From Microcoleus sp. (GTDB taxonomy: Bacteria; Cyanobacteriota; Cyanobacteriia; Cyanobacteriales; Microcoleaceae): a stretch of 64,000 nt of DNA. The notes under the pieces are model-generated. The model saw nothing but the letters and a program-made list of their open reading frames with translations. It made no database searches and had not been told where the DNA came from. Of this stretch, positions 32,309 through 63,846 are shown piece after piece (position 1 is the stretch's first letter; each line of letters begins with the position of its first letter). The stretch is from assembly GCF_049646505.1 (NCBI RefSeq), contig NZ_JBARVX010000073.1:7510-71509 (forward strand), read 5' to 3'. The translations under genes and the position numbers were made by a program.

Positions 32309-32425
32309 AGGATCGAAAACTTAATAACTTAAACACCTCCTACAGTCCTCTCTCCTGTAAGTTGCCAGATAAAAGGAGGCAGAGCCTCGCCTATCTGCAT
32401 TACCAGGCAGAGCCTGGTAACGAGC
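32309..32425. mobile_element. MITE-like composite repeat, family A
   Basis: ggatcgaaaacttaataacttaaacacctcctacagtcctctctcctgtaagttgcc...ggaggcagagcctcgcctatctgcattaccaggcagagcctggtaacgag. Confidence 0.85.
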
Positions 32426-39336: not shown

Positions 39337-39452
39337 GGGATCGAAAACTTAATAACTTAAACACCTCGTACAGTCTTCTCTCCTGTAAGTTGCCAGATAA
39401 AAGGAGGCAGAGCCTCCGGATCTGCATTACCAGGCAGAGCCTGGTAACGAGT
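39337..39452. mobile_element. MITE-like composite repeat, family A
   Basis: Same two-module sequence as 32309-32425, with a few substitutions. Confidence 0.85.
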
Positions 39453-40544: not shown

Positions 40545-40745
40545 GGATCGAAAACTTAATAACTTAAACACTTCTTACATTCCTTTCTCTTGTAAGTTGC
40601 TTTCCTCAAAGGAGGCAGAGCCTCGCCTATCTGCATTACCAGGCTCTTCCTGGTAACGAGCAGCGAGCAGTAGCGCACTCCGACTAAAGAAAAAAGGAGG
40701 CAGAGCCTCCGGATCTGCATTACCAGGCAGAGCCTGGTAACGAGC
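40545..40745. mobile_element. MITE-like composite repeat, family A (with duplicated core module)
   Basis: The ggatcgaaaacttaataacttaaacac... module is followed by two copies of the ggaggcagagcctc..ctgcattaccagg...cctggtaacgag core. Confidence 0.85.
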
Positions 40746-45564: not shown

Positions 45565-45892
45565 TCAGTAGTCATTAGTCATTGGTAATTAATGTATGGC
45601 TTACAGCGACTTCAGTTTCTACTTGTTATATCGTTTTCGGTTGCATCGGAATGATTTAACCACAGAGAACACAGAGAACACAGAGAGAAATGAATACAGG
45701 ACGATGAAGAGAGGAATTGATATTACCAGGCTCTGCCTGGTAACGAGTAGAACGAGTAAATCACTTAGGATTTCTATATCAGCCAAAATATTAAACAACC
45801 TGCCATTGATACTGTTGCACATTTTTGGAAAAATAATCTAACTCAGGCGACAAATAAACCCGCCCCTTTGATTGAGATAAAATTTAGATAAA

Positions 45893-45914
45893 TTTGACAG
45901 GCTGTCTTTTGACA
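45893..45914 (+). promoter_or_regulatory. Operator/promoter motif TTTGACAggctGTCTTTTGACA upstream of the DsbD_2-ferric reductase operon
   Basis: The second TTGACA sits 18 nt before TATTAT, a good -35/-10 pair. The dyad GTCT-TT-TGAC overlaps the -35. A near-identical motif lies at 53019-53040, in the same orientation relative to mbnP. It is 92 nt 5' of ATG 46006. Confidence 0.55.
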
Positions 45915-46005
45915 AAATCGAGAGGCTGCATTTATTATTGTCAGCAGTCATCCATCAATCAGCAGTTAAAAAACTAATGACGTGAAAGCTAACTACTGAC
46001 TCAAA

Positions 46006-47211
46006 ATGCTAGACCTCCTGCTAATTAGCACTGTCGGATTTCTCGGCAGTTTCGGACACTGCGCGGGAATGTGCGGCCCGCTGACAGTGGCGTTTTCCCT
46101 GTCGGCGACTGGCAAACAAAAAGCTGCTTCCCTGCGCTTTCACCTGCTATTAAATGCGGGAAGAATTGCGGCCTACGCCTTAGTTGGTGCTGCAATTGGC
46201 GGACTGGGTTCGGTATTAATTGCTGGCGGACAAATGGCTGGGACTGGTAGCGGATGGCGGCGGGCGATCGCACTTCTAACAGGTACAATGCTGATTTGGT
46301 TCGGCACAGTCCAAATTAAACCAGATTTGCTGCCCAGATTGCCGCTGTTGCACCCAATTTCGCACGATCGAGTCGGACAAGCAATGAACAAGCTTTCGGC
46401 GCAAAAAAAATGGTGGGTGCCCGTCGCTTTGGGCTTGCTTTGGGGTTTAATTCCCTGCGGTTTCCTCTACGCCGCCCAAATTAAAGCAGCAGAAACCGGA
46501 AATGCGGTTTTGGGCGCGGCAACCATGCTGGCTTTCGGATTGGGAACACTCCCAACCATGCTGGGAGTAGGTTTTTTCGCCGGCAGGTTGAGCGCTGACA
46601 CGCGCAGTCAACTGTTTCGGATGGGCGGCTGGGTGACGGTGGCGATCGGGATTATTACCCTGCTGCGAACCGACGAAATGGTCGATTTGACCGGCCACGC
46701 AGCCCTGCTGTGCTTGATGCTAGCACTGTTGGCGCGTCCCGTTAGCAAGTTTTTGCCGGCACTGCTGCGCTACCGCCGCGCTGTGGGTGTCGGCGCGTTT
46801 ATCCTAGCAGTCGCCCACACGTTTTATATGCTGGATCATACGCTGAAGTGGAATTTTGATGCCGTGTCTTTCATGTTGCCGCAGCATCAGTGGGGAATCC
46901 TAGCTGGGATGCTGTCGCTGCTGTTGATGGTACCTGCAGCGGTAACAAGTGTCGATCGCCTTCAACATTATTTAGGCAAACTCTGGCGAATGCTTCACCT
47001 GTTAACCGTCCCCGCTTTTTTGCTGTCCGCTGTACACGCAGCCCTCATCGGTTCCCACTATTTCGGCGGCTTTGAATCGAAGTTGCACCATCAACTGCTG
47101 ACCGCCGTTTTAGCCGTAGTTGCAGTATTAGTTTTGTGCGTGCGATCGCGCTTATTTTGGTCAATTTTATCACTGGAGAATTTTTATGTTGCGCCTGTCA
47201 AACCAAAATAA
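46006..47211 (+). CDS. Fusion membrane protein: DsbD_2/TauE-like domain (HCxxMCGP) + ferric-reductase-like (MsrQ/YedZ-type, di-His heme b) transmembrane domain
   Basis: N-terminus LGSFGHCAGMCGPLTVAF. C-terminal half has FILAVAHTFYML and LHLLTVPAFLLSAVHAALIG, which are conserved His-bearing helices. About 12 TM segments in total. Confidence 0.7.
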   Translation: MLDLLLISTVGFLGSFGHCAGMCGPLTVAFSLSATGKQKAASLRFHLLLNAGRIAAYALVGAAIGGLGSVLIAGGQMAGTGSGWRRAIALLTGTMLIWFGTVQIKPDLLPRLPLLHPISHDRVGQAMNKLSAQKKWWVPVALGLLWGLIPCGFLYAAQIKAAETGNAVLGAATMLAFGLGTLPTMLGVGFFAGRLSADTRSQLFRMGGWVTVAIGIITLLRTDEMVDLTGHAALLCLMLALLARPVSKFLPALLRYRRAVGVGAFILAVAHTFYMLDHTLKWNFDAVSFMLPQHQWGILAGMLSLLLMVPAAVTSVDRLQHYLGKLWRMLHLLTVPAFLLSAVHAALIGSHYFGGFESKLHHQLLTAVLAVVAVLVLCVRSRLFWSILSLENFYVAPVKPK

Positions 47212-47659
47212 AATTTTGGGAATATTAGTTTTTTTAGGATTGCTCATTGAAGCAGCAATTCCCACAGCACCACACTTCAATTCAACTTCTGTTCTGGCCC
47301 ACGAAGTCGAAGTTTCCGGCGATGTAGCCGCTACCTTTCACCTAGAACCCAACCACAACCCCCGCGCCGGAGAAACCGCCAGAGTTTGGTTTGCCCTGAC
47401 TCGCAGGGGCGGTCAAATAATCCCACTAGAGCAGTGTAACTGCAAATTAGCGGTATATCCGAAACAACACAAACAGGGGGATAAGCCCCTGATGCAGCCG
47501 CCTCTTAAAGCCATATCTGCCGAGAAATACAGAGGCATTCCGGGAGCCGATATCGTATTTCCCAAAGCTGGCATTTACGAACTTCAATTGAGCGGAACAG
47601 CAAAAACCGCAGCTAATTTTAAACCCTTCAAACTGAGTTATACAGTCACAGTTCGCTAA
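47186..47659 (+). CDS. Small exported protein, possible metal (Cu)-binding beta-sandwich (YcnI/CopC/FixH-like; tentative)
   Basis: Signal-peptide-like N-terminus ending VLA|HEVEV would expose an N-terminal His. HLEPNHNP and CNC motifs present. GGAG Shine-Dalgarno 7 nt upstream. Overlaps the preceding gene by 26 nt. Confidence 0.55.
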   Translation: MLRLSNQNKILGILVFLGLLIEAAIPTAPHFNSTSVLAHEVEVSGDVAATFHLEPNHNPRAGETARVWFALTRRGGQIIPLEQCNCKLAVYPKQHKQGDKPLMQPPLKAISAEKYRGIPGADIVFPKAGIYELQLSGTAKTAANFKPFKLSYTVTVR

Positions 47660-47985
47660 GATCCTCTTTCCATCACCGAACATAAATATTGTAGGGGCGG
47701 GTAAACCTGCCAATAAACGCCTAAAACCCAAAATCTCATAAACCCGCCCCACCCAACCTTCGGTAATATCATATACCATCTTCATCAGAATTATTCGTCT
47801 CTCTCTTCTCTTTCTCTGCGTTCTCTGCGTTCTCTGCGGTTAAATAATTCCGATCAAATCTGTATAAAACCTTAAAAATTGCCAACCCTACAAAATGTCA
47901 CAAATTTTTACATTACATTATAACCAGTGTCAATTCTGGAAATTGTTCAAACTAACCTCTCTTGAACTGACTAAAGGATATAACA

Positions 47986-49428
47986 ATGGATATCTTATCA
48001 AACACCGTCGCGCTGTCGCGGATGCAATTTGCGCTAACGGCAATATTCCATATGCTGTGGCCAGTTCTGACTACCGGAATGGGGATTTATCTGGTAATTG
48101 TTGAAGGAATGTGGCTGAAAACTCGCAATCCCGAATACTACCACCACGCTCGTTTTTGGTCGAAACTCTACGTCCTCAACTTCGGGATTGGAGTAGCTTC
48201 CGGGATTCCGATGGAATTTCAATTCGGCACAAACTGGGCCCCATTTTCGGAAGCTGTTGGTGACTTTTTTGGCAGCATTTTAGGCTTTGAAGCTTCAATG
48301 GCATTTATGCTAGAAGCAGGCTTTTTAGGAATTATGCTATTCGGTTGGGAGCGCGTTCACCCGATCGTCCATTATTTCGCTACAATCATGGTAGCCTTCG
48401 GCGCAAACCTTTCCACAGTCTGGATTTTAGTCGCCAACTCTTGGCTGCAAACTCCAGCGGGCGGAGAAATGGTCAACGGGAAGTTCATTGTCAGCGATTA
48501 CTTTCAAGCAATTCTCAACCCCTTCGCATTAAACAGCATTCTGCATATGTTTTTTGCGACGTTAGAAACTTCACTGTTTGTAATTGGCGGGATTAGCGCT
48601 TGGTACATTCTTAACAAGCGCAACCAAGCCTTTTTTTCCAAATCATTAAAAATTGCCATAGCCACAGCAATCGCCGTTGCACCTTTGCAGATATTCATCG
48701 GACATTTGAGCGCCGAACAAGTTTATCGCTATCAACCCACCAAATTAGCTGCGATTGAAGCTAAGTGGGAAACCTCCCCAGCCGGAGAGTCAGCCGATTG
48801 GACTTTGCTGGCTTTACCTAACGAAAAAGCTCAAAAAAATGACTGGGAAATTAAGATTCCCAATGGCTTAGGATACGTTCTGGAATTCAAAGAAAAACTA
48901 TCCGAACCAGTTCTCGGATTAAAAGAATGGAAGCCCGAAGATAGACCCCGAATGGTGGGTTTAATCTACTATTCTTTCCGCATCATGTCCGGGATTGGAT
49001 TCTTTTTTCTAGGATTGATGCTATTCAGTATAATTCAGTGGATGCGAGGCAAACTTTCGCCCGAAAATATTAGCAATCAAGCTTGGCTGATGCGCGCTTG
49101 GGTATTAGCTGCGCCGCTGGGATATATTGCTGTAGAATCCGGTTGGATAGTGCGCTGTGTCGGCCGACAGCCCTGGGTTTTATACGGGCAAATTCGCACT
49201 GCTGATGGTGTATCGAACATCCCCGCTAGCAATGTTTTAACTTCCCTCATCTGCTTTGCCGTTATCTACAGCTTTTTGTTTGTTTGTGCCTTGTATTTTG
49301 GCAGCAGAATTATCCGCAAAGGGCCGAATTTAAATCTACCTGTGCCGGGATTAGAGAATGAACCCGCCATCGAAACTCAACCCGCAGAACATATTCCCAA
49401 TCAACGTCCAGCAGAAGCACAACAATAG
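47986..49428 (+). CDS. cydA: Cytochrome bd quinol oxidase subunit I
   Basis: MDILSNTVALSRMQFALTAIFHMLWPVLT... plus a Q-loop region. Typical CydA. Confidence 0.93.
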   Translation: MDILSNTVALSRMQFALTAIFHMLWPVLTTGMGIYLVIVEGMWLKTRNPEYYHHARFWSKLYVLNFGIGVASGIPMEFQFGTNWAPFSEAVGDFFGSILGFEASMAFMLEAGFLGIMLFGWERVHPIVHYFATIMVAFGANLSTVWILVANSWLQTPAGGEMVNGKFIVSDYFQAILNPFALNSILHMFFATLETSLFVIGGISAWYILNKRNQAFFSKSLKIAIATAIAVAPLQIFIGHLSAEQVYRYQPTKLAAIEAKWETSPAGESADWTLLALPNEKAQKNDWEIKIPNGLGYVLEFKEKLSEPVLGLKEWKPEDRPRMVGLIYYSFRIMSGIGFFFLGLMLFSIIQWMRGKLSPENISNQAWLMRAWVLAAPLGYIAVESGWIVRCVGRQPWVLYGQIRTADGVSNIPASNVLTSLICFAVIYSFLFVCALYFGSRIIRKGPNLNLPVPGLENEPAIETQPAEHIPNQRPAEAQQ

Positions 49429-49436
49429 GAGATTTT

Positions 49437-50447
49437 ATGCAAGCTTTGGAGCATTTTCTCCCGCAAGTTTGGTTTATAGTCTTGGCTCTATTTCTACTCC
49501 TTTACGTCATGCTAGACGGTTTTGATTTGGGAGTTGGAATTTTGTCTTTGACTGCTGACGATGAGGAACGCAGGGGCATTTTAATGACCAGTCTGGGCAA
49601 CGTTTGGGATGCTAACGAAACTTGGCTGGTTTTAATGGGAGGCGCTTTATTTGGGGCATTTCCCCTCGCTTACGGCACGATTTTGACTGCTTTGTACATA
49701 CCGATTTGCATGATGCTTTTTGGTTTGATATTTCGGGCTGTCGCCTTTGAATTTCGCGAGCATTCTAACCGGAAAAAATTCTGGAATTATGCTTTTGGTG
49801 CCGGCAGTTTCTTAGCTGCTTTAGCTCAAGGATTTGCCCTCGGTGCGGTGCTCGAAGGCATTGCGGTGGATGAGGCCGGGCATTTTGTGGGGACAACTTG
49901 GGATTGGCTGGATTGGCGATCGATCTTGGTGGCTTTGACGCTGGTTCAAGGCTATGTTTTGATCGGTTCCACCTATCTAATTATGAAGACTGACGGAGAA
50001 CTGCAAACAAATCACTATCGCACTGCTAAAATTGCAGCAGTGACGACTTTAATCGGAGCAGTTTTAATTACGATCGCCACTCCGATTTTTTACGAAAGTA
50101 CCAGGGAGAAATTGTTTGAAAAACCGCTAGTTTATGTGTTTGTAGCGATTCCTTTGCTGGGATTGCTGCTGGTGGGAATGCTGCTAAAAAGTTTGGCAAA
50201 AAAAGAAGAAAAAACGCCGTTCGTGTGGACAATATTGATTTTCCTGCTTACTTTCCTGGGCTTGGGATTAATTGTTTTTCCATACATTATTCCGACCAAA
50301 ATTACGATTTACCAAGCTGCGGCTTCCCCCAGCGCGCTGGTATTTATGATTGTGTTCATCGGCTTCCTTATCCCGATCATGATTTTTTACAACATCTACA
50401 ATTACATTGTATTTCGGGGTAAGGTTACTGGCGGCTACGGCGAATAA
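49437..50447 (+). CDS. cydB: Cytochrome bd quinol oxidase subunit II
   Basis: LPQVWFIVLALFLLLYVMLDGFDLGVGIL is the CydB hallmark. It starts 8 nt after cydA. Confidence 0.93.
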   Translation: MQALEHFLPQVWFIVLALFLLLYVMLDGFDLGVGILSLTADDEERRGILMTSLGNVWDANETWLVLMGGALFGAFPLAYGTILTALYIPICMMLFGLIFRAVAFEFREHSNRKKFWNYAFGAGSFLAALAQGFALGAVLEGIAVDEAGHFVGTTWDWLDWRSILVALTLVQGYVLIGSTYLIMKTDGELQTNHYRTAKIAAVTTLIGAVLITIATPIFYESTREKLFEKPLVYVFVAIPLLGLLLVGMLLKSLAKKEEKTPFVWTILIFLLTFLGLGLIVFPYIIPTKITIYQAAASPSALVFMIVFIGFLIPIMIFYNIYNYIVFRGKVTGGYGE

Positions 50448-50485
50448 AATAGGTTGGTAGTGAGGACTGAACTCCTCCTAAAAAT

Positions 50486-51715
50486 TTAAGGAATCAAGTC
50501 TTCACTGCGAACGAATGGGTCGATAAAAGCAGGATTTGTAATAAAAGCTTCATCAGTTAAACTGTGCAAAAAAGCCAACAAATCGCGCTGTTCTTGCACG
50601 TTGAGTTTGAAGCCAGAAACAAAGTTACTTTTGAGCGGATTTTCGCTACCTATTCCCGCAAATTCTCCTTTTTTAATAGTTCTGCCACCCGCTTTGTAGT
50701 GGCCGATAACTTCTGGCAAGGTTTTGATACTTCCGTCGTGCATATAAGGTGCTGTCAAAGCAATATTTCGCAGGGTTGGTGCTTTGAATTTGCCCATGTC
50801 CGAGGGTTCGCTGGTGATTTCGTATACTCCAGTATTTTTGGGCGGATAAGCGCCTTTGCCGTCAAGATTGTACAATCCTGTATTGTGAAAGGCTATTTCT
50901 TTGAAAGCTAGGCGATCGTGCGCGATCGAATCTGAGAAGTTTAGTCCGCCGTGGCAGTGAAAGCATTCTAAACGTTCGCTGTTAAATAATTCTTCGCCCC
51001 GCTTGGCTGAAGCTGAAATCGCACCGGAGTCGCCGTTGTAGCGGTATCTGTCGTAGGGAGAAGTCAGGGAAATTAAAGTGCGTTCAAAAGAGGCGATCGC
51101 CTTTGCTAAATTGCTAATATTAATAGGATTGGGTTCTTGACTAAAAGCTGCTGCAAACATTTTTTGGTATTGAGAATCCGATCGCAATATTAGCAAAAGT
51201 TCCTGTTCTTTCCCTACCATTCCCATTTCTACGGGGTGTTCGCCAAACAAAGGTACTAATAGCTGAGATTCTAGTTTATTTTGTAGCGGATTTGCCCAAG
51301 TTAGCACGGAATTGTAACCAATGTTGGCTAAACTCATAGCATTGCGCGGGTGTTTTTCTCCGGTTGCGCCGACTCCTACTGTTTTGCCATCGGTGAAAGC
51401 TTTCGCTTGAATGTGACAGGAAGCGCAGGAAAATTCTCCTGTGACTGACAGGCGTTTTTCGTAGAAAAGATATCTGCCTAATTCAACTTTTTCTTGGCTG
51501 ATTGGGTTGTCGGCTGGTACAATTGGTTTTGGTATTCCAGCGGGAATGTTCCAATTGTAAGTAGGATCGGGTGGATTTGCTAAACTGGAATTTGTGGAGG
51601 ATAATACTGCACTCAAACTCATTGCTAGGAAGCATGATAAAATGCAGATAATAGTCAGAGTTGATAATTTTTTCCGCTTCATTTGATGTTTTGTAAGTAG
51701 CCGGCGGTTTGACAA
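50486..51715 (-). CDS. mbnH: MbnH-family di-haem cytochrome c peroxidase/MauG-like enzyme
   Basis: Two CxxCH motifs (CASCHIQ, CFHCHGG) and [17 protein letters not shown]. The likely true start is the MKRKKL ATG near 51679, which is followed by a signal peptide. Confidence 0.85.
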
Positions 51716-51743
51716 TTACATAGAGATTGAGGTGTGTCATAAA

Positions 51744-51794
51744 CAGAGGCAGAGCCTCCGGATCTGCATTACCAGGCAGAGCCTGGTAACGAGC
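51744..51794. repeat. Family A core repeat (solo) between mbnP and mbnH
   Basis: gaggcagagcctccggatctgcattaccaggcagagcctggtaacgag. It is followed by a ccgcagag-type repeat and a 14-bp inverted-repeat element (ggcgttgctga...tcagcaacgcc, 51867-51981). Confidence 0.85.
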
Positions 51795-52003
51795 AATTTC
51801 ACATTACCACAAGACCTCTCTTCCCTCTTCTCTCTGCGCCAAGAGCGCCCTCTGCGGTAAAAAAAAGGCGTTGCTGATTCATGGTATGAATCAACTTTGC
51901 GCTTGATGTTACAAAGCTCACCATACTTGGCTTATAGCAATTGGGAAATCTTGAATTCATATTTGTATTCAGCAACGCCGCAATTTCAATGCGCGACAGC
52001 TTA

Positions 52004-52954
52004 TTACTTAACTTGAAAGAAAGTTTGTCCCGCAGCAGGTTTATTTCCAAATGGCAAACCTAAGTTTTTCATAATTCCGGCGCAGTCGCCGTCATTCGGT
52101 TCCGACATACATCCGGGCGGAGTATTGGCTTGATTTGCTGTTAAATTAGTTTGAGAAACTAGGGATTTTAGGTCAGCAATAACTGTATTGTTTGTCGGAT
52201 CGAAATTGCTAAAAATTACTTGGGATGTGTTAGGAATTGCACAAATATTCGGCTTTTGATTGTTGCCTTCAGCTTTGCATCCCGTGCTGCCTAAATGAAT
52301 CATAAAACCCTGCAATCCGCCACCGTGACTGCCGCCGCGATTGCCTGCGCTGTGAGCAATTTGACTGCTTTCTTTGCCAGATTTGCTGCCGGGATTTTGG
52401 TCAGCAATTTGATTTTTTATGTCAATCCTCAGAAATTTGTAGCCGCCGCGCCAGTTCCACCACAGGGATGTGAGATTGAGGGGCGAAGGTGCGAGACTTG
52501 CGTCTTCGTGATTGAGGCTAAAAGGTACGCCGAGGGTGAATTGCAGGCCTTTGTAGTTGCCTTTAGGTATTGTGCCGATTACTCGATCGCGAATTTCGGC
52601 TGTTCCGTTAGCGCAAGCACCGGATTTGTTCTCAAAATCTAGCAAAGCGACGTTTTGATGCTGCCATTTGCCGTCTTGTTTGAGAGTGAGCGGTACTGCT
52701 TTGCCGCTACCGTCAATTAAACCAACTTCGGATATATAAAAGCGGAAATCTGTAGGGGTAACGGTAGCAGCAGAAGTGCCTAAATTGCTGTAGCTTTCGC
52801 CACAGTTAAAGGATTTTTCACCTACCGCTGCGCTAAATTTAATTTCGATTTCTTGAGTTTCTGCGGCTGTGGCTTGATGCCTGTCAATCGCCCAAAAGCT
52901 GCCCAAAATAGCTGTGCCTGCAAAGGTTGAGGCCAAGATTAGTTGTTTTTTCAT
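52004..52954 (-). CDS. mbnP: MbnP-family periplasmic copper-binding protein (the four-Cys partner of the metallo-mystery pair)
   Basis: Signal peptide present. FRFYISEVGLID, GACANGT and LTSLWWNWRGGYKFLRIDI (the Trp-rich motif holding the Trp converted to kynurenine in characterised MbnP), plus paired Cys. Adjacent to mbnH on the same strand. Confidence 0.85.
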   Translation of the reverse strand: MKKQLILASTFAGTAILGSFWAIDRHQATAAETQEIEIKFSAAVGEKSFNCGESYSNLGTSAATVTPTDFRFYISEVGLIDGSGKAVPLTLKQDGKWQHQNVALLDFENKSGACANGTAEIRDRVIGTIPKGNYKGLQFTLGVPFSLNHEDASLAPSPLNLTSLWWNWRGGYKFLRIDIKNQIADQNPGSKSGKESSQIAHSAGNRGGSHGGGLQGFMIHLGSTGCKAEGNNQKPNICAIPNTSQVIFSNFDPTNNTVIADLKSLVSQTNLTANQANTPPGCMSEPNDGDCAGIMKNLGLPFGNKPAAGQTFFQVK

Positions 52955-53018
52955 TTAGGGATACTTAAAATACCAACTCAGGTAATTCCGGCCTGATTTT
53001 TACACTTTTTGCTGCAAC

Positions 53019-53040
53019 TGTCAAATGACGGCTTGTCAAA
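53019..53040 (-). promoter_or_regulatory. Operator/promoter motif TTTGACAagccGTCATTTGACA upstream of mbnP
   Basis: On the minus strand, the second TTGACA lies 16-17 nt before TAAAAA/AAAAAT. The perfect dyad GTCA-TT-TGAC (plus-strand coordinates 53020-53029) overlaps the -35. It is 65 nt 5' of ATG 52954. Confidence 0.55.
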
Positions 53041-53133
53041 CTTGTAAATAGCAAAGTTTATGATTAAGCCTTTCTAAAGAAACGGTCGATAAAAAGCCTT
53101 GATGATGTATTGTCGATCGATAATTAATTACAT

Positions 53134-53255
53134 TAGACCTCTTGCAAAAGTCCTTTTAATCAAATTTTGGGACGGGCTAGAAGCCCATCCCACAAGAAAA
53201 AAGATTTTTATGGGATGGCTTCTAGCCGGTCCTAACTATTTTTGCAAGAAGTCTA
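53134..53255. mobile_element. MITE, family C (TIR TAGACCTCTTGCAAAA; core gggacgggctagaagcccatccc)
   Basis: tagacctcttgcaaaag...ttttgcaagaagtcta terminal inverted repeats with nested hairpins. It sits between the mbnP promoter and the blaI-like gene. Confidence 0.8.
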
Positions 53256-53261
53256 TTATCC

Positions 53262-53289
53262 CTAAAATCTCAAACCTAAAATCTAAAAT
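53262..53289. repeat. STRR heptamers (CTAAAAT) abutting the BlaI-like start codon
   Basis: ctaaaatctcaaacctaaaatctaaaatcct-ATG. The last 17 nt are identical to those preceding rodA. Confidence 0.9.
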
Positions 53290-53292
53290 CCT

Positions 53293-53715
53293 ATGAATCC
53301 TCTGCCGAATTACCGCCCCAAGCAACTTTCTCTCGGCCCTTTGGAGGCTGAGATTTTAAATATAGTTTGGGAGCTAGAAATTGCTACAGTCAAAGACGTG
53401 CACGATCGCATTTTAGCCGATCCCGATCGCGAATTGGCCTACGCTTCAGTCACAACAGTGCTGCGGCGCTTGACGGAGAAGGGTTGGCTGGTTTGTAACA
53501 AAAGCGAAAGGACATTCACTTGGCAACCTTTAGTTTCTGGCGAAGAAGCCCGATCGCTGTTTGCTTGCGATCGCTTGCAGAAGTTCCTAGCAGTTAGCAA
53601 TCCCGATATTGTAGCAGCATTTGCTGACAGCCTCGACCAAGCAACAGTCGAACAATTACAAGAAATTTCCCTTCGCATTCAAGCTGTCCGCCAAGCTAGA
53701 AAGGAGAAAAAATAA
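53293..53715 (+). CDS. BlaI/MecI/CopY-family winged-helix transcriptional repressor (PetR-like)
   Basis: 140 aa. LGPLEAEILNIVWELEIATVKDVHDRI...YASVTTVLRRLTEKGWL is the family signature. The stop overlaps the start of the next gene (TAATG). Confidence 0.85.
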   Translation: MNPLPNYRPKQLSLGPLEAEILNIVWELEIATVKDVHDRILADPDRELAYASVTTVLRRLTEKGWLVCNKSERTFTWQPLVSGEEARSLFACDRLQKFLAVSNPDIVAAFADSLDQATVEQLQEISLRIQAVRQARKEKK

Positions 53716-54762: not shown

Positions 54763-57042
54763 TCATAGCGGAAGCTCGATCGCAAATTCCGTCCCTTCAC
54801 CCAAAACCGAAGTGCAACTCAAGGCTCCGCCGTGTTTTTCAACAACAATTCGGTAGCTGATGGATAACCCTAAACCGGTGCCTTTACCCATCGGTTTTGT
54901 AGTGAAAAATGGGTCAAACAATTGGAGGCGCACGTCTTCTGTCATGCCGGTTGCATTATCGGCAATCCTGATGCAAATACTATTTTCGTTAAGGGCTTCG
55001 GTGCGAATGCTGATAGTTGGTTTCCAGTCGCCGCCCGTTAGCGCAGCCTTCGGAGAGGAACGCTTTTTTTGGTTGCAAGCATCTTCTAGAGCGTCAATGC
55101 TGTTGCTCAGCAGATTCATAAATACCTGATTTAGCTGACCTGCATAACATTCAATTGAGGGAACTTCGCCGTAATTTTTAATTACTTTTATTTCTGGAAA
55201 TTCTGCTCTGGCTCGCAGTTTGTTATGCAAAATTAGCAGCGTGCTGTCTATACCTTCGTGAATGTTGGTAGACTTCTTTACCGAGTCGTCTAAACGCGAG
55301 AAATTTCGCAAACTCAAAACTATTTCTCGAATTCTATCGGCTCCCATTTTCATCGAAGATAATATTTTTATTAAGTCTTCTCTCAGAAATTCTAAATCGA
55401 TGTTTTCAATGTATTCTTGAACTTCTACCGTTGGCTGAGGATAGTATTTTTGATAGAGTTCCACAAGCTGCAGCAAGTCTTTCATGTATTGGGTGGCGTA
55501 GGAAATATTGCCGTAGATAAAACTGACAGGGTTGTTGATTTCGTGAGCCACTCCCGCTACCATTTGACCGAGACTTGACATTTTTTCGGTATGAATTAGA
55601 TGAGATTGGGTTTCTCGGAGTTCTTTGAGAGCGATTTCTAGCTGTTGGGCTCTGTTGTTGGCGATCGCCTCGGAGAGCCGCAAAGCATCCTCCGCTACTT
55701 TGCGCTCTGTGATGTCAAAAATAGCGCCGTTGAGCGATAAAATTTGACCTGCTGCGTTGAAAATGGCTTGACCTTTTTCTGCAACCCACCGCACGTTTCC
55801 GTCGCTGTGAATCAGGCGATATTCGATCGCGTAAGGTTGTTTTGTCTTAATCGCCCGATCGATAATTTGCTCGCTCGGCTCCGCGTCATCGGGATGAACT
55901 AGACTAGAAAAATCCTGCACCGGTTGAATCATAAAGTTAGCTGCCGGATAGCCGGCAATAGCTTCTATGCCGCTGCTGATAAACGTTACGCTCGATCGCC
56001 CTGCCGCGCTGCAACGATAAACTGCACCGGGAATGTTAGAAACTAAGGATCTAAATTCTTGTTCTCTTTCCCGCAAAGCTGCTTCAATTTGCTTGCGGTC
56101 GCTAATGTCGCGAGCAAAGGCGCACTGATATTCTTTACCGTTAAATTCCAAATGGTCGATCGTAATTTCCACCGGAAAAACTCGACCGTACTTAGTGAGG
56201 TGGTGAACTTCAATATTAACCGAACCGCAGCGTTTTAAGACTTTCCAGTGCAAACTCCAAGCTGTTTCGGGAAAATCTGGATTGATGTCGTGCACAGTCA
56301 TCTCGAGCAATTCTGCCGCCGAATATCCCAAGGAAGAGCAAGCAGCGTCGTTGACGTACAAAAATTTACCGTCGGAACCCATCCAGAATACCGCATCTGC
56401 CGATCGGTCGATCGCCAGTTGAGTCAGTTGCAACTTTTCTTCAACCCGCTGGCGGTCGGCAATTTCTTTTTCTAACTGTTCTTCAAGCGAATTGATAGCT
56501 AAAGCGCGATCGACAATAGTGTCTGCAGTGGCAAGGGCGATCGATTGTTTTGACAATTCTCCTGTCTGAAGATCGGGATTTTCCCCATGTTCTTCTAGTT
56601 GTTTTAACGGCAGTTGTTGCAGATTTTCTGTTGGATTAAAACCAGATTCGGCAAGTGCTTTCGGCATCAGGAAGATCGCCACTGCGGCTGAGAACAAAAA
56701 AATCGCCGCACTTGCAGCTTTGAGAGTTACCGACAGCCAATAAATAGAATGCCAAAGCGCCCAAACTTGCGTCAATTCAGCCGCGCCGCAGGCAAAAAAA
56801 CCAACAGCAAACAGCCGTCCAATCTTGCTGCGATCGCCCTGGCGGGTAAAATAAACCAAAGATAGCGCCACAGAGAAATAAGCCAGTGCCGCCAGCGAGT
56901 CAAAAACAGCGTACAGTCGCAACTCCTGCGGCGCGTCGCAGCCGACTGCGGCAGATACAGGAAGTGTTGAAAAAAAAATTGTTAATTGTTCTTGCATAAA
57001 GTTCAAGAAAAAAGTTATTTGCACCAAGGCAAACCCCATCAA
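54763..57042 (-). CDS. Sensor histidine kinase: ETR1-like (ethylene-binding-domain-like) transmembrane module + coiled coil + 2-3 PAS domains + HisKA/HATPase
   Basis: TM region AYFSVALSLVYF...FFACGAAELTQVW parallels Arabidopsis ETR1 AYFSIPLELIYF...IVLCGATHLINLW (from memory). PAS S-boxes present. H-box AGVAHEINNP. G-box GTGLGLSISY. Confidence 0.85.
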   Translation of the reverse strand: MMGFALVQITFFLNFMQEQLTIFFSTLPVSAAVGCDAPQELRLYAVFDSLAALAYFSVALSLVYFTRQGDRSKIGRLFAVGFFACGAAELTQVWALWHSIYWLSVTLKAASAAIFLFSAAVAIFLMPKALAESGFNPTENLQQLPLKQLEEHGENPDLQTGELSKQSIALATADTIVDRALAINSLEEQLEKEIADRQRVEEKLQLTQLAIDRSADAVFWMGSDGKFLYVNDAACSSLGYSAAELLEMTVHDINPDFPETAWSLHWKVLKRCGSVNIEVHHLTKYGRVFPVEITIDHLEFNGKEYQCAFARDISDRKQIEAALREREQEFRSLVSNIPGAVYRCSAAGRSSVTFISSGIEAIAGYPAANFMIQPVQDFSSLVHPDDAEPSEQIIDRAIKTKQPYAIEYRLIHSDGNVRWVAEKGQAIFNAAGQILSLNGAIFDITERKVAEDALRLSEAIANNRAQQLEIALKELRETQSHLIHTEKMSSLGQMVAGVAHEINNPVSFIYGNISYATQYMKDLLQLVELYQKYYPQPTVEVQEYIENIDLEFLREDLIKILSSMKMGADRIREIVLSLRNFSRLDDSVKKSTNIHEGIDSTLLILHNKLRARAEFPEIKVIKNYGEVPSIECYAGQLNQVFMNLLSNSIDALEDACNQKKRSSPKAALTGGDWKPTISIRTEALNENSICIRIADNATGMTEDVRLQLFDPFFTTKPMGKGTGLGLSISYRIVVEKHGGALSCTSVLGEGTEFAIELPL

Positions 57043-63477: not shown

Positions 63478-63846
63478 ATGCTAAGTTTTTTCTTAACTTG
63501 GATAGTAGCCGCAGTTTCGCTCGTGATTACAGCTAACATTGTACCAGGTATTGCGGTAGTTAGCTTTCCGGCGGCGATGGTGGCTGCTGTGGTTATCGGA
63601 TTGGTGAACGCGGTTGTCAGGCCGATCCTGACACTGCTGACGCTGCCTTTGACTATTATTACTTTAGGTTTGTTTTTGTTTGTTGTGAATGCAATCTCGC
63701 TTTCTCTAGCTTCCTGGTTGGCGGGTGCGTTCAGTATCGGCTTTGCGGTTAACGGTTTTTGGCCGGCTTTGTTTGGTTCGATTGTTTTGTCATTTGTTTC
63801 TGGTTTGATCGGTCGATTTGTGAATGCCGACACTTTGTCTCAGTAA
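63478..63846 (+). CDS. Small 4-TM membrane protein, phage-holin-4 (DUF360)-like family
   Basis: Start set at MLSFFLTWIVAAVSLVITANIVPG... (ATG 63478). Has VIGLVNAVVRPIL and LPLTIITLGLFLFVVNA, typical of the family. Confidence 0.75.
   Translation: MLSFFLTWIVAAVSLVITANIVPGIAVVSFPAAMVAAVVIGLVNAVVRPILTLLTLPLTIITLGLFLFVVNAISLSLASWLAGAFSIGFAVNGFWPALFGSIVLSFVSGLIGRFVNADTLSQ

Follow-up and report, generated by a model that had tools for sequence, protein, structure and literature searches.

Candidate PetR boxes at the promoters of mbnP-mbnH and a DsbD_2-ferric-reductase gene in Microcoleus

A stretch of 64,000 nucleotides from Microcoleus sp. (contig NZ_JBARVX010000073.1, positions 7,510 to 71,509 of the forward strand; the whole stretch is called the window) carries one 22-nt motif at two promoters. 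The first promoter precedes a gene for a membrane protein in which a DsbD_2 domain is fused to a ferric-reductase-like domain (DsbD_2-FRD), and the second precedes mbnP, a gene for a copper-binding protein. Divergently from mbnP lies a gene pair resembling petR and petP, the copper-responsive regulator and protease of Synechocystis, and both copies of the motif are probably operators of such a switch. The features are collected in Table 1. Downstream of mbnP lies its partner mbnH, the start codon of which is uncertain, and the two genes are presumably co-transcribed. The sequence WWNW is invariant in MbnP, and the adjacent MbnP/MbnH pair is kept in all related loci. MbnP binds copper via a kynurenine made by MbnH (PMC11951088), and genes for TonB-dependent transporters, PepSY_TM proteins and MbnPH form copper-repressed operons in proteobacteria (PMC9426467). 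DsbD_2-FRD is the first gene behind its own copy of the motif, and its product combines a His/Cys/Met-rich GHCxGMCGP motif in the N-terminal first helix with an MsrQ/YedZ-like haem-b reductase domain. The gene that follows, orf157, probably belongs to the same operon, since its start overlaps the end of DsbD_2-FRD.

Table 1. Features of the window that bear on the two 22-nt sites.
Feature	Position	Strand	Evidence and remarks
Candidate petJ-type PetR box, DsbD_2-FRD promoter	45893..45914	+	Reads TTTGACAGGCTGTCTTTTGACA; TTTGAC-N9-TTTGAC around GACAGGCTGTC; sequence and pattern match
Core inverted repeat GACA-N3-TGTC, DsbD_2-FRD box	45896..45906	+	GACAGGCTGTC; published PetR core GAC-N5-GTC
Predicted DsbD_2-FRD promoter	45909..45938	+	-35 TTGACA (second repeat), 18-nt spacer, -10 TATTAT (45933-45938)
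DsbD_2 + ferric-reductase-like (MsrQ/YedZ-type) fusion membrane protein, 401 aa	46006..47211	+	Pfam DsbD_2, Ferric_reduct; NCBIfam
orf157, exported beta-sandwich protein of unassigned family, 157 aa	47186..47659	+	AlphaFold2 (AF2) model
mbnH, MbnH-family di-haem enzyme	50486..51715	-	TIGR04039 525 bits (cut-off 363)
mbnP, MbnP-family copper-binding protein with WxW motif	52004..52954	-	Pfam MbnP 137 bits; TIGR04052 303 bits (cut-off 140)
Predicted mbnP promoter	52996..53024	-	-35 TTGACA, 17-nt spacer, TG-extended -10 AAAAAT (53001-52996)
Candidate petJ-type PetR box, mbnP promoter	53019..53040	-	Reads TTTGACAAGCCGTCATTTGACA; sequence and pattern match
Core GAC-N5-GTC, mbnP box	53027..53037	-	GACAAGCCGTC
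petR-like regulator, Penicillinase_R / BlaI-CopY family, 140 aa	53293..53715	+	PF03965 97.5 bits (cut-off 22.6); divergent from mbnP
petP-like M48/M56 membrane protease, 279 aa	53715..54554	+	HEQAH; start overlaps petR stop at 53715

Both 22-mers were found, by reading of the sequence, where the initial annotation had placed them, and each is oriented like the gene downstream of it, as had been claimed. The ATG at 46006 follows the site of DsbD_2-FRD after 92 nt, and the ATG at 52954 follows that of mbnP after 65 nt. The second TTGACA had been described as lying 16-18 nt from a -10-like hexamer, and the measured spacings are 18 and 17 nt. All positions given here relative to the transcription start site (TSS) are predicted from these hexamers, with starts expected close to 45945 (plus strand) and 52989 (minus strand); they place the dyad centre at about -44 for DsbD_2-FRD and about -43 for mbnP, with its 3' end at -39/-38. 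When up to 3 mismatches are allowed, the window holds three matches to the pattern of the 22-mer where 0.28 would be expected; none of 100 shuffled sequences reached this count. The more general pattern TTTGAC-N5-GTC-N-TTTGAC, with up to 2 mismatches, likewise gives 3 matches against 0.19 expected, and both sites fit it with 0 mismatches. Thus chance fails to explain the pair, and the proposal of one shared element overlapping the -35 is borne out. The only additional match, at 616-637 on the minus strand, has 3 mismatches, lies within a coding sequence ending ...GLVKLLGR* and was taken as chance, so that the window holds no third copy, as had been stated. A second GACA-N3-TGTC at 63829-63839 was also discarded, as it falls in the last codons of an open reading frame (ORF) and lacks the direct repeats.

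The window contains other repeats beside these sites. A perfect 21-nt palindrome, TTACCAGGC(WSW)GCCTGGTAA, is present in 8 copies against 0 expected (193-213, 251-271, 32400-32420, 39427-39447, 40636-40656, 40720-40740, 45723-45743 and 51769-51789); every copy seen in its context is intergenic, one of them 150 nt upstream of the candidate box of DsbD_2-FRD and another in the gap between mbnP and mbnH. It looks like a dispersed hairpin element of the repetitive extragenic palindrome (REP) or miniature inverted-repeat transposable element (MITE) kind. Between petR and the mbnP promoter lie nested inverted repeats (53134-53255), with arms of 16, 19 and 14 nt forming a hairpin of ~120 nt, the outer arm of which includes the predicted -35 of petR (TTTGCA). 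Such a structure might insulate the two divergent promoters from each other or terminate transcription between them, or it may be a palindromic element that was inserted there.

The identity of the motif becomes apparent from the PetR/PetP system. Electrophoretic mobility shift assays (EMSA) showed PetR of Synechocystis to bind the promoters of petE, petJ and slr0601 (Garcia-Canas et al. 2021, PNAS; bioRxiv 10.1101/2020.07.31.226407). According to the same work, GAC-N5-GTC is fully conserved across the PetR-bound promoters; in the activated (petJ-type) promoters the motif is extended by a pair of direct repeats, TTTGAC-N9-TTTGAC, located at the -35, in the repressed petE promoter GACA-N3-TGTC lies between -10 and -35, and the box core of petJ lies 37 bp from the TSS (bioRxiv 10.1101/2020.07.31.226407). 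Both window sites possess the fully conserved core (GACAGGCTGTC and GACAAGCCGTC) and, enclosing it, the direct repeats with 0 mismatches, while the 3' end of the dyad at predicted -38/-39 compares with the 37 bp at Synechocystis petJ. By its sequence, the motif is the published petJ-type (activated) PetR box, which both sites match exactly. The operator type and its regulator are already known; mbnPH and DsbD_2-FRD would be new as targets.

The initial annotation had read the operator differently, as a GTCA-nn-TGAC dyad of BlaI/CopY type with 4-2-4 spacing at both sites. This repeat is perfect at the mbnP site (GTCA-TT-TGAC), but the DsbD_2-FRD site reads GTCT-TT-TGAC. Five positions of the pattern were left free in the genome scan described below, which allows base preferences there to be read without bias. 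At position 15 the 104 listed cyanobacterial sites have T in 89, A in 8 and G in 7. The 4-2-4 dyad needs A at this position, which is rare and absent at the DsbD_2-FRD site, and it is therefore not the conserved feature; it was rejected as the operator. Position 11 is T in 89 of the same 104 sites (86%) versus 5 of 21 non-cyanobacterial ones (24%), and this T completes the palindrome GACA-N3-TGTC. The TGAC-N5-GTCA dyad, mentioned in the initial annotation as an additional one, does exist, but it is not secondary, since GAC-N5-GTC is the conserved dyad and the published PetR core. A -10-like hexamer (at least 4 of 6 matches) lies 17-18 nt past the box in most listed sites.

The protein most likely to read this box is encoded next to it. 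The published hallmarks of PetP are an HEXXH motif, about four transmembrane helices, the absence of a C-terminal sensor domain, a start codon overlapping the petR stop and methionine in the loop between transmembrane helices TM2 and TM3 (bioRxiv 10.1101/2020.07.31.226407), and in Synechocystis PetP is a copper-activated protease that degrades PetR (bioRxiv 10.1101/2020.07.31.226407). The published hallmarks of the PetR/PetP pair are present in the 140-aa and 279-aa genes of the window. The petP-like protein has no sensor domain, has Met55/Met61 in the short TM2-TM3 loop and has hydrophobic N- and C-terminal helices, the transmembrane helices being assigned by eye. The petR-like protein scores 41.9 bits against CopY/TcrY (TIGR02698, cut-off 121.95) and also falls below the equivalog cut-offs of BlaI and MecI, and its C-terminus, ...RIQAVRQARKEKK, contains no Cys motif; because of these low scores and the missing motif it is regarded as a member of the superfamily and of none of the CopY/TcrY, BlaI and MecI families. 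A structure search with petR returned no PetR structure, only distant BlaI/MecI relatives. The closest named relatives of the window proteins are from Tychonema and Microcoleus.

Linkage between petRP and the box extends well beyond the window. Divergent petRP homologues lie beside box-bearing promoters at no fewer than 18 loci: beside a petJ box at L007, L014, L075, L076, L098 and L111, beside the box of a PepSY_TM gene at L021, of a TonB-dependent receptor gene at L006 and of GLTT-repeat protein genes at L082, L086 and L087, beside the box of a gene string comprising superoxide dismutase (SOD), orf157 and DsbD_2-FRD at L068, and beside an mbnP box in the window and at L047, L121, L122, L148 and L155. 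Among the ~99 listed cyanobacterial loci of 8 kb retrieved by the motif, petR is found in 14, far above what a random 8-kb genome piece would give. The homologues at petJ promoters show 57-90% identity. The suggestion that the BlaI/CopY-family protein of 53293-53715 is the binder gains support from the hallmarks and from this linkage, and the protein very probably binds the box.

Some further features surround this pair. Autoregulation of the window petR through a canonical core was rejected, as the region 53041-53292 ahead of it contains no GAC-N5-GTC. At one Alkalinema locus (L079, 61-1111) ~340 nt separate a box from the petP-like gene downstream of it, room enough for a gene of petR size, and no petR was found in this gap by tblastn; the divergent petRP-like pair may be directly autoregulated there. 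The gene convergent with petP in the window (54763-57042, minus strand) encodes a histidine kinase with PAS domains and an ETR1_N ethylene-receptor-like N-terminal domain, a domain that has a copper cofactor in plants, and its position beside the copper switch could be significant or fortuitous.

The genome-wide pattern search that the initial annotation had called for was run with TTTGACA-N4-GTC-N-TTTGACA over one genome per species (185,579 species, a 596-Gb collection) and returned at least 120 loci, of which, among the 120 listed, ~99 are cyanobacterial and 21 are others. By our own arithmetic, the 17 specified bases would give ~70 chance matches across 596 Gb with only few in cyanobacteria, a split that assumes cyanobacteria to be a few percent of the collection. 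The listed non-cyanobacterial matches show no T bias at position 11 and no consistent downstream gene. For each site the nearest substantial downstream ORF was called, the products were clustered and representatives were annotated. Cytochrome c6 was found downstream of the box at 19 or more sites, 6 of the 19 beside petRP, so that within the listed loci the published association of the box with petJ is reproduced independently and holds in genomes bearing petRP. In Elainella (L014) the 22-mer before cytochrome c6 is identical to the DsbD_2-FRD site of the window; petJ of the host genome itself lies outside the window. The other recurrent products are DsbD_2-FRD orthologues (at least 16 species, from Nostocales to Tychonema), TonB-dependent receptors (at least about 15), small GLTT-repeat membrane proteins (at least 7), PepSY_TM proteins (at least 5) and the family of orf157 directly downstream of the box (at least 3). 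Of three box-linked TonB receptors that were typed, none passed the cut-off of a specific equivalog; that of a generic TonB-dependent siderophore-receptor subfamily was reached by one and narrowly missed by another. The box thus recurs before cytochrome c6 and a defined gene set, and the caveat that the motif might be mere -35 consensus is refuted by its cyanobacterial restriction together with this recurrent set.

The scan also yielded several observations outside the main gene classes. Two of the 21 non-cyanobacterial loci, from a Flavobacteriales (L008) and a Gracilibacteria (L059) metagenome-assembled genome, have cyanobacterial-like proteins after the box, a TonB receptor like that of L101 in the former and a TPR protein like those of L083, L088 and L096 in the latter, and they are probably mis-binned cyanobacterial contigs. 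A Nostocales group (L009, L024, L036, L072, L081, L092, L100 and L115, also L052 and L080) shares the identical site AATGTTTGACAGACTGTCTTTTGACA. The 450 nt downstream of it lack any ORF of at least 50 aa, and a conserved block ~250 nt downstream resembles the end of a convergent gene; these boxes may drive a tiny ORF or else an RNA, either small or antisense. Two tandem boxes 58-300 nt apart precede cytochrome c6 in Microcystis (L056, L058, L084), in Spirulina (L098) and at L111, and a TonB-dependent receptor in Calothrix (L051), which suggests cooperative or graded control.

Phylogenetic footprinting of orthologous mbnP promoters, also called for in the initial annotation, was carried out on an unbiased set of 80 metagenomic loci retrieved by MbnP protein similarity, the motif not being used. 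Of these, 37 are cyanobacterial-like mbnP loci, with at least 50% identity and usable upstream sequence, and 38, with lower identity and high GC, are non-cyanobacterial. When up to 2 mismatches in 15 positions were allowed, the box was found directly upstream of mbnP, at 80-310 nt and in the orientation of the gene, in 17 of the 37 cyanobacterial loci, and before a co-directional gene preceding mbnPH, mostly that of a TonB-dependent receptor, in 9 more. It follows that the box heads the mbnPH gene string in 26 of 37. No box at this threshold was present in any of the 38 non-cyanobacterial loci, on any reverse strand or in any coding control, one non-cyanobacterial reverse strand (L192) having a match with 4 mismatches. 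The chance expectation is ~5e-4 per region, and Fisher p is ~1e-6.

For the second promoter, the exact box precedes DsbD_2-FRD orthologues in at least 16 other species. Its footprint drew on close relatives found by protein similarity (four loci of 79-84% identity, five relatives in another count), among them Oscillatoria nigro-viridis PCC 7112. Their spacer is barely alignable, and what stands out as conserved in it is the box, with the block TGAC.G.CTGTCTTTTGACAAAA unchanged throughout, together with the -10 region and the leader at the 5' end. A homologue of orf157 directly follows DsbD_2-FRD in 12 of the 16 listed motif loci, and therefore the box, DsbD_2-FRD and orf157 form a conserved unit. 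Matches listed in the protein searches with DsbD_2-FRD and orf157 are all close relatives with at least 77% identity, and no solved structure was matched by the sequence of either protein. The AF2 model of the orf157 domain is good; its Foldseek matches are weak (E ~1e-3, TM-score ~0.5), generic Ig-like folds being mixed with the periplasmic copper/metal proteins CrdA, FetP/P19, Zcp and PmoD, so that a kinship of the modelled fold to periplasmic copper proteins is suggestive only. The two proteins may serve cupric reduction and copper transfer.

The surroundings of this unit vary. The genes cydAB for the copper-free cytochrome bd oxidase (47986-50447 in the window) lie downstream of DsbD_2-FRD/orf157 in Microcoleus and Tychonema, and only there; they were rejected as conserved members of the operon, the Nostocales unit being DsbD_2-FRD and orf157 with no cydAB following. 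In Microseira (L108) and Dolichospermum (L052) cydAB is divergent from a box-bearing promoter. The presence of cydAB beside boxes in three lineages could reflect copper sparing of the haem-copper oxidase, an arrangement that is not conserved in Nostoc. In Tumidithrix elongata (L068, 3012-5520) the box is followed by a Cu/Zn superoxide dismutase-like gene and by homologues of orf157 and DsbD_2-FRD, the string being divergent from petRP.

Taken together, the motif is the published box, is restricted to cyanobacteria, is kept at orthologous promoters and is linked to petJ and petRP. We consider it likely that both 22-mers are operators of a copper-responsive PetR/PetP switch, of the class of promoters that PetR activates (petJ, slr0601). 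In such a box the repeat GAC(A)-N3-(T)GTC, centred near -43/-44, would be followed by a second TTTGACA occupying the -35. When copper is scarce, PetP would be inactive and PetR would accumulate, bind the box and turn on mbnP-mbnH and DsbD_2-FRD/orf157; when copper returns, PetP would degrade PetR and transcription would drop. Activation of mbnPH and DsbD_2-FRD/orf157 by PetR at low copper is the most likely direction for three reasons. Firstly, the sites are built like those of petJ and slr0601, two genes that loss of petR silences and loss of petP makes constitutive (bioRxiv 10.1101/2020.07.31.226407). Secondly, identical boxes precede cytochrome c6, which is made when copper is lacking. Thirdly, the cargo fits copper acquisition, given the copper binding of MbnP and the copper-repressed operons of proteobacteria. 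The two operons would join cytochrome c6 in a copper-starvation regulon and probably serve periplasmic copper capture and reduction.

Several points weigh against this interpretation. Binding by this PetR, the copper response and the TSS at these promoters are predictions, as are the direction of regulation and the roles of the proteins. Orthology of the window petR/petP to Slr0240/Slr0241 rests on hallmarks and linkage. The box was missing, at up to 2 mismatches, from 11 of the 37 cyanobacterial mbnP loci, some of which have incomplete upstream sequence. The scan selects perfect sites, and the frequencies of DsbD_2-FRD orthologues are biased by this mode of retrieval, while the unbiased footprint of that promoter spans only Microcoleaceae at 79-84% identity. 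The Cu/Zn superoxide dismutase gene behind the box of Tumidithrix elongata fits poorly in a copper-starvation regulon, and RNA-seq in Synechocystis gave a regulon of four genes, so that a wider one has no experimental precedent. Finally, the perfect TTGACA of the second repeat is paired with a fair -10; the promoter might be strong alone, and a bound protein could then repress it.

Because a consensus -35 is contained in the second repeat, the first alternative to be weighed is that RNA polymerase is occluded. The neighbouring BlaI/CopY-type protein would then act, as the initial annotation had implied, as a classical repressor on GTCA-nn-TGAC over the -35, and the genes would be expressed only after its removal, with copper present. 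BlaI, MecI and CopY are repressors, and PetR itself represses petE; a box that overlaps a perfect -35 with a usable -10 may not need an activator, and the mbnP site does contain the perfect dyad. The imperfect dyad at the DsbD_2-FRD site and the scarcity of its key A (8 of 104 listed cyanobacterial sites) argue against this, as does the architecture, which is that of PetR-activated promoters and not of petE, where the site lies between -10 and -35. Identical boxes stand before cytochrome c6, expressed when PetR is present, and Synechocystis genetics show that PetR activates at such petJ-type boxes. Moreover, induction of copper-acquisition genes by copper sufficiency makes little physiological sense. 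Repression is accordingly judged unlikely.

A still less probable alternative is that TTTGACA...TTTGACA is read by another factor, such as an OmpR-type or copper two-component regulator or an alternative sigma factor, PetR having no role here. Direct repeats are typical of response-regulator sites, a histidine kinase gene (54763-57042) adjoins petP, and PetR binding at these two promoters is a prediction. The usual direct-repeat period of OmpR-type sites is 10-11 nt, whereas the period here is 15 nt. The palindromic pairing of A7 with T11 is conserved though free in the search pattern, PetR binds box-bearing promoters of Synechocystis in vitro, and petRP is linked to such promoters at the 18 or more loci described above. 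The last alternative, a very improbable coincidence of tandem -35-like hexamers with no shared regulator, draws on the partial identity of the motif with the sigma-70 -35 consensus and is refuted by the comparative data, with none of 100 shuffles reaching the observed count, ~99 of the 120 listed genome matches being cyanobacterial, and the box persisting in front of orthologues with as little as ~50% protein identity but missing in the controls.

Operation of the two sites as PetR-activated promoters can be compared with several known systems. The Synechocystis sp. PCC 6803 system has the same GAC-N5-GTC core and the same TTTGAC-N9-TTTGAC repeats, and its placement of the box at and just upstream of the -35 is predicted here as well; the petR-petP overlap, HEXXH, loop methionines and lack of a sensor domain are shared, and the box likewise stands before cytochrome c6 in many cyanobacteria. 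It differs in its targets, which are petJ, petE and slr0601-0602 there and mbnP-mbnH and DsbD_2-FRD/orf157 here, and in the host, here a Microcoleus/Tychonema-like filamentous cyanobacterium. With the CopY, BlaI and MecI systems there is kinship in the regulator, of the same winged-helix Penicillinase_R superfamily, in half-sites that share ACA/TGT (GACA...TGTC here, TACA..TGTA in the cop box) and, for BlaI/BlaR1, in inactivation of the regulator by a cognate M56-type membrane protease. In contrast, the conserved dyad here is 4-3-4, with a spacer of 3 nt where those operators have 2 nt, the -35 is provided by a third, directly oriented half-site, binding is predicted to activate and not to repress, and the window protein is below the equivalog cut-offs and lacks the CopY-type C-terminal Cys motif; a 4-2-4 repeat perfect at both sites and conserved, as in operators of the CopY/BlaI/MecI type, was not found. 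In class II activation, as by CRP/FNR, the activator sits at about -41.5 and overlaps the -35. Here too the dyad, with its predicted centre at -43/-44, would adjoin or overlap the -35, a functional analogy only, as the protein family is unrelated and a consensus -35 lies inside the site here. The methanobactin mbnT-P-H genes and bp2923-bfrG-bp2921 of Bordetella comprise the same kinds of gene, with a TonB-dependent transporter by mbnPH and PepSY_TM, and such proteobacterial sets are tied to low copper (PMC9426467), as is proposed for the window genes. The control element differs, a DUF2946 upstream ORF in Bordetella (PMC9426467) and the PetR box here, and the DsbD_2-FRD/orf157 pair is not part of the proteobacterial sets.

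The data suggest, from the distribution of the box, that PetR controls more than the four known genes. Only four PetR-dependent genes were found by RNA-seq in Synechocystis, and the original PetR paper and its commentary describe a four-gene regulon (bioRxiv 10.1101/2020.07.31.226407); reviews of 2025 and 2026 name only petE and petJ as PetR targets, and the discoverers of PetR/PetP stated that the cyanobacterial copper import system was still unidentified. In the literature no link of PetR to MbnP/mbnPH, DsbD_2-FRD, TonB receptors, PepSY_TM or a wider regulon was found. The finding is a testable lead with probable new regulon members and not a new mechanism. The box promoters are a natural set for studying transcription activation by a BlaI-family protein, and the box is of practical interest because copper-regulated promoters serve as genetic tools in cyanobacteria. 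In many cyanobacterial orders, frequently by petRP, the same operator stands at operons of mbnPH, TonB receptors, PepSY_TM proteins and DsbD_2-FRD/orf157, and these box-headed operons are concrete, testable candidates for copper acquisition under starvation. Evenly poised, in our judgement, is the broader view that PetR, beyond switching between two electron-carrier proteins, is the master activator of a copper-starvation regulon in many cyanobacteria, including an envelope-spanning route of copper acquisition in which TonB-dependent receptors, MbnP with its maturase MbnH, PepSY_TM proteins and the DsbD_2-ferric-reductase fusion with orf157 would together form high-affinity copper import.

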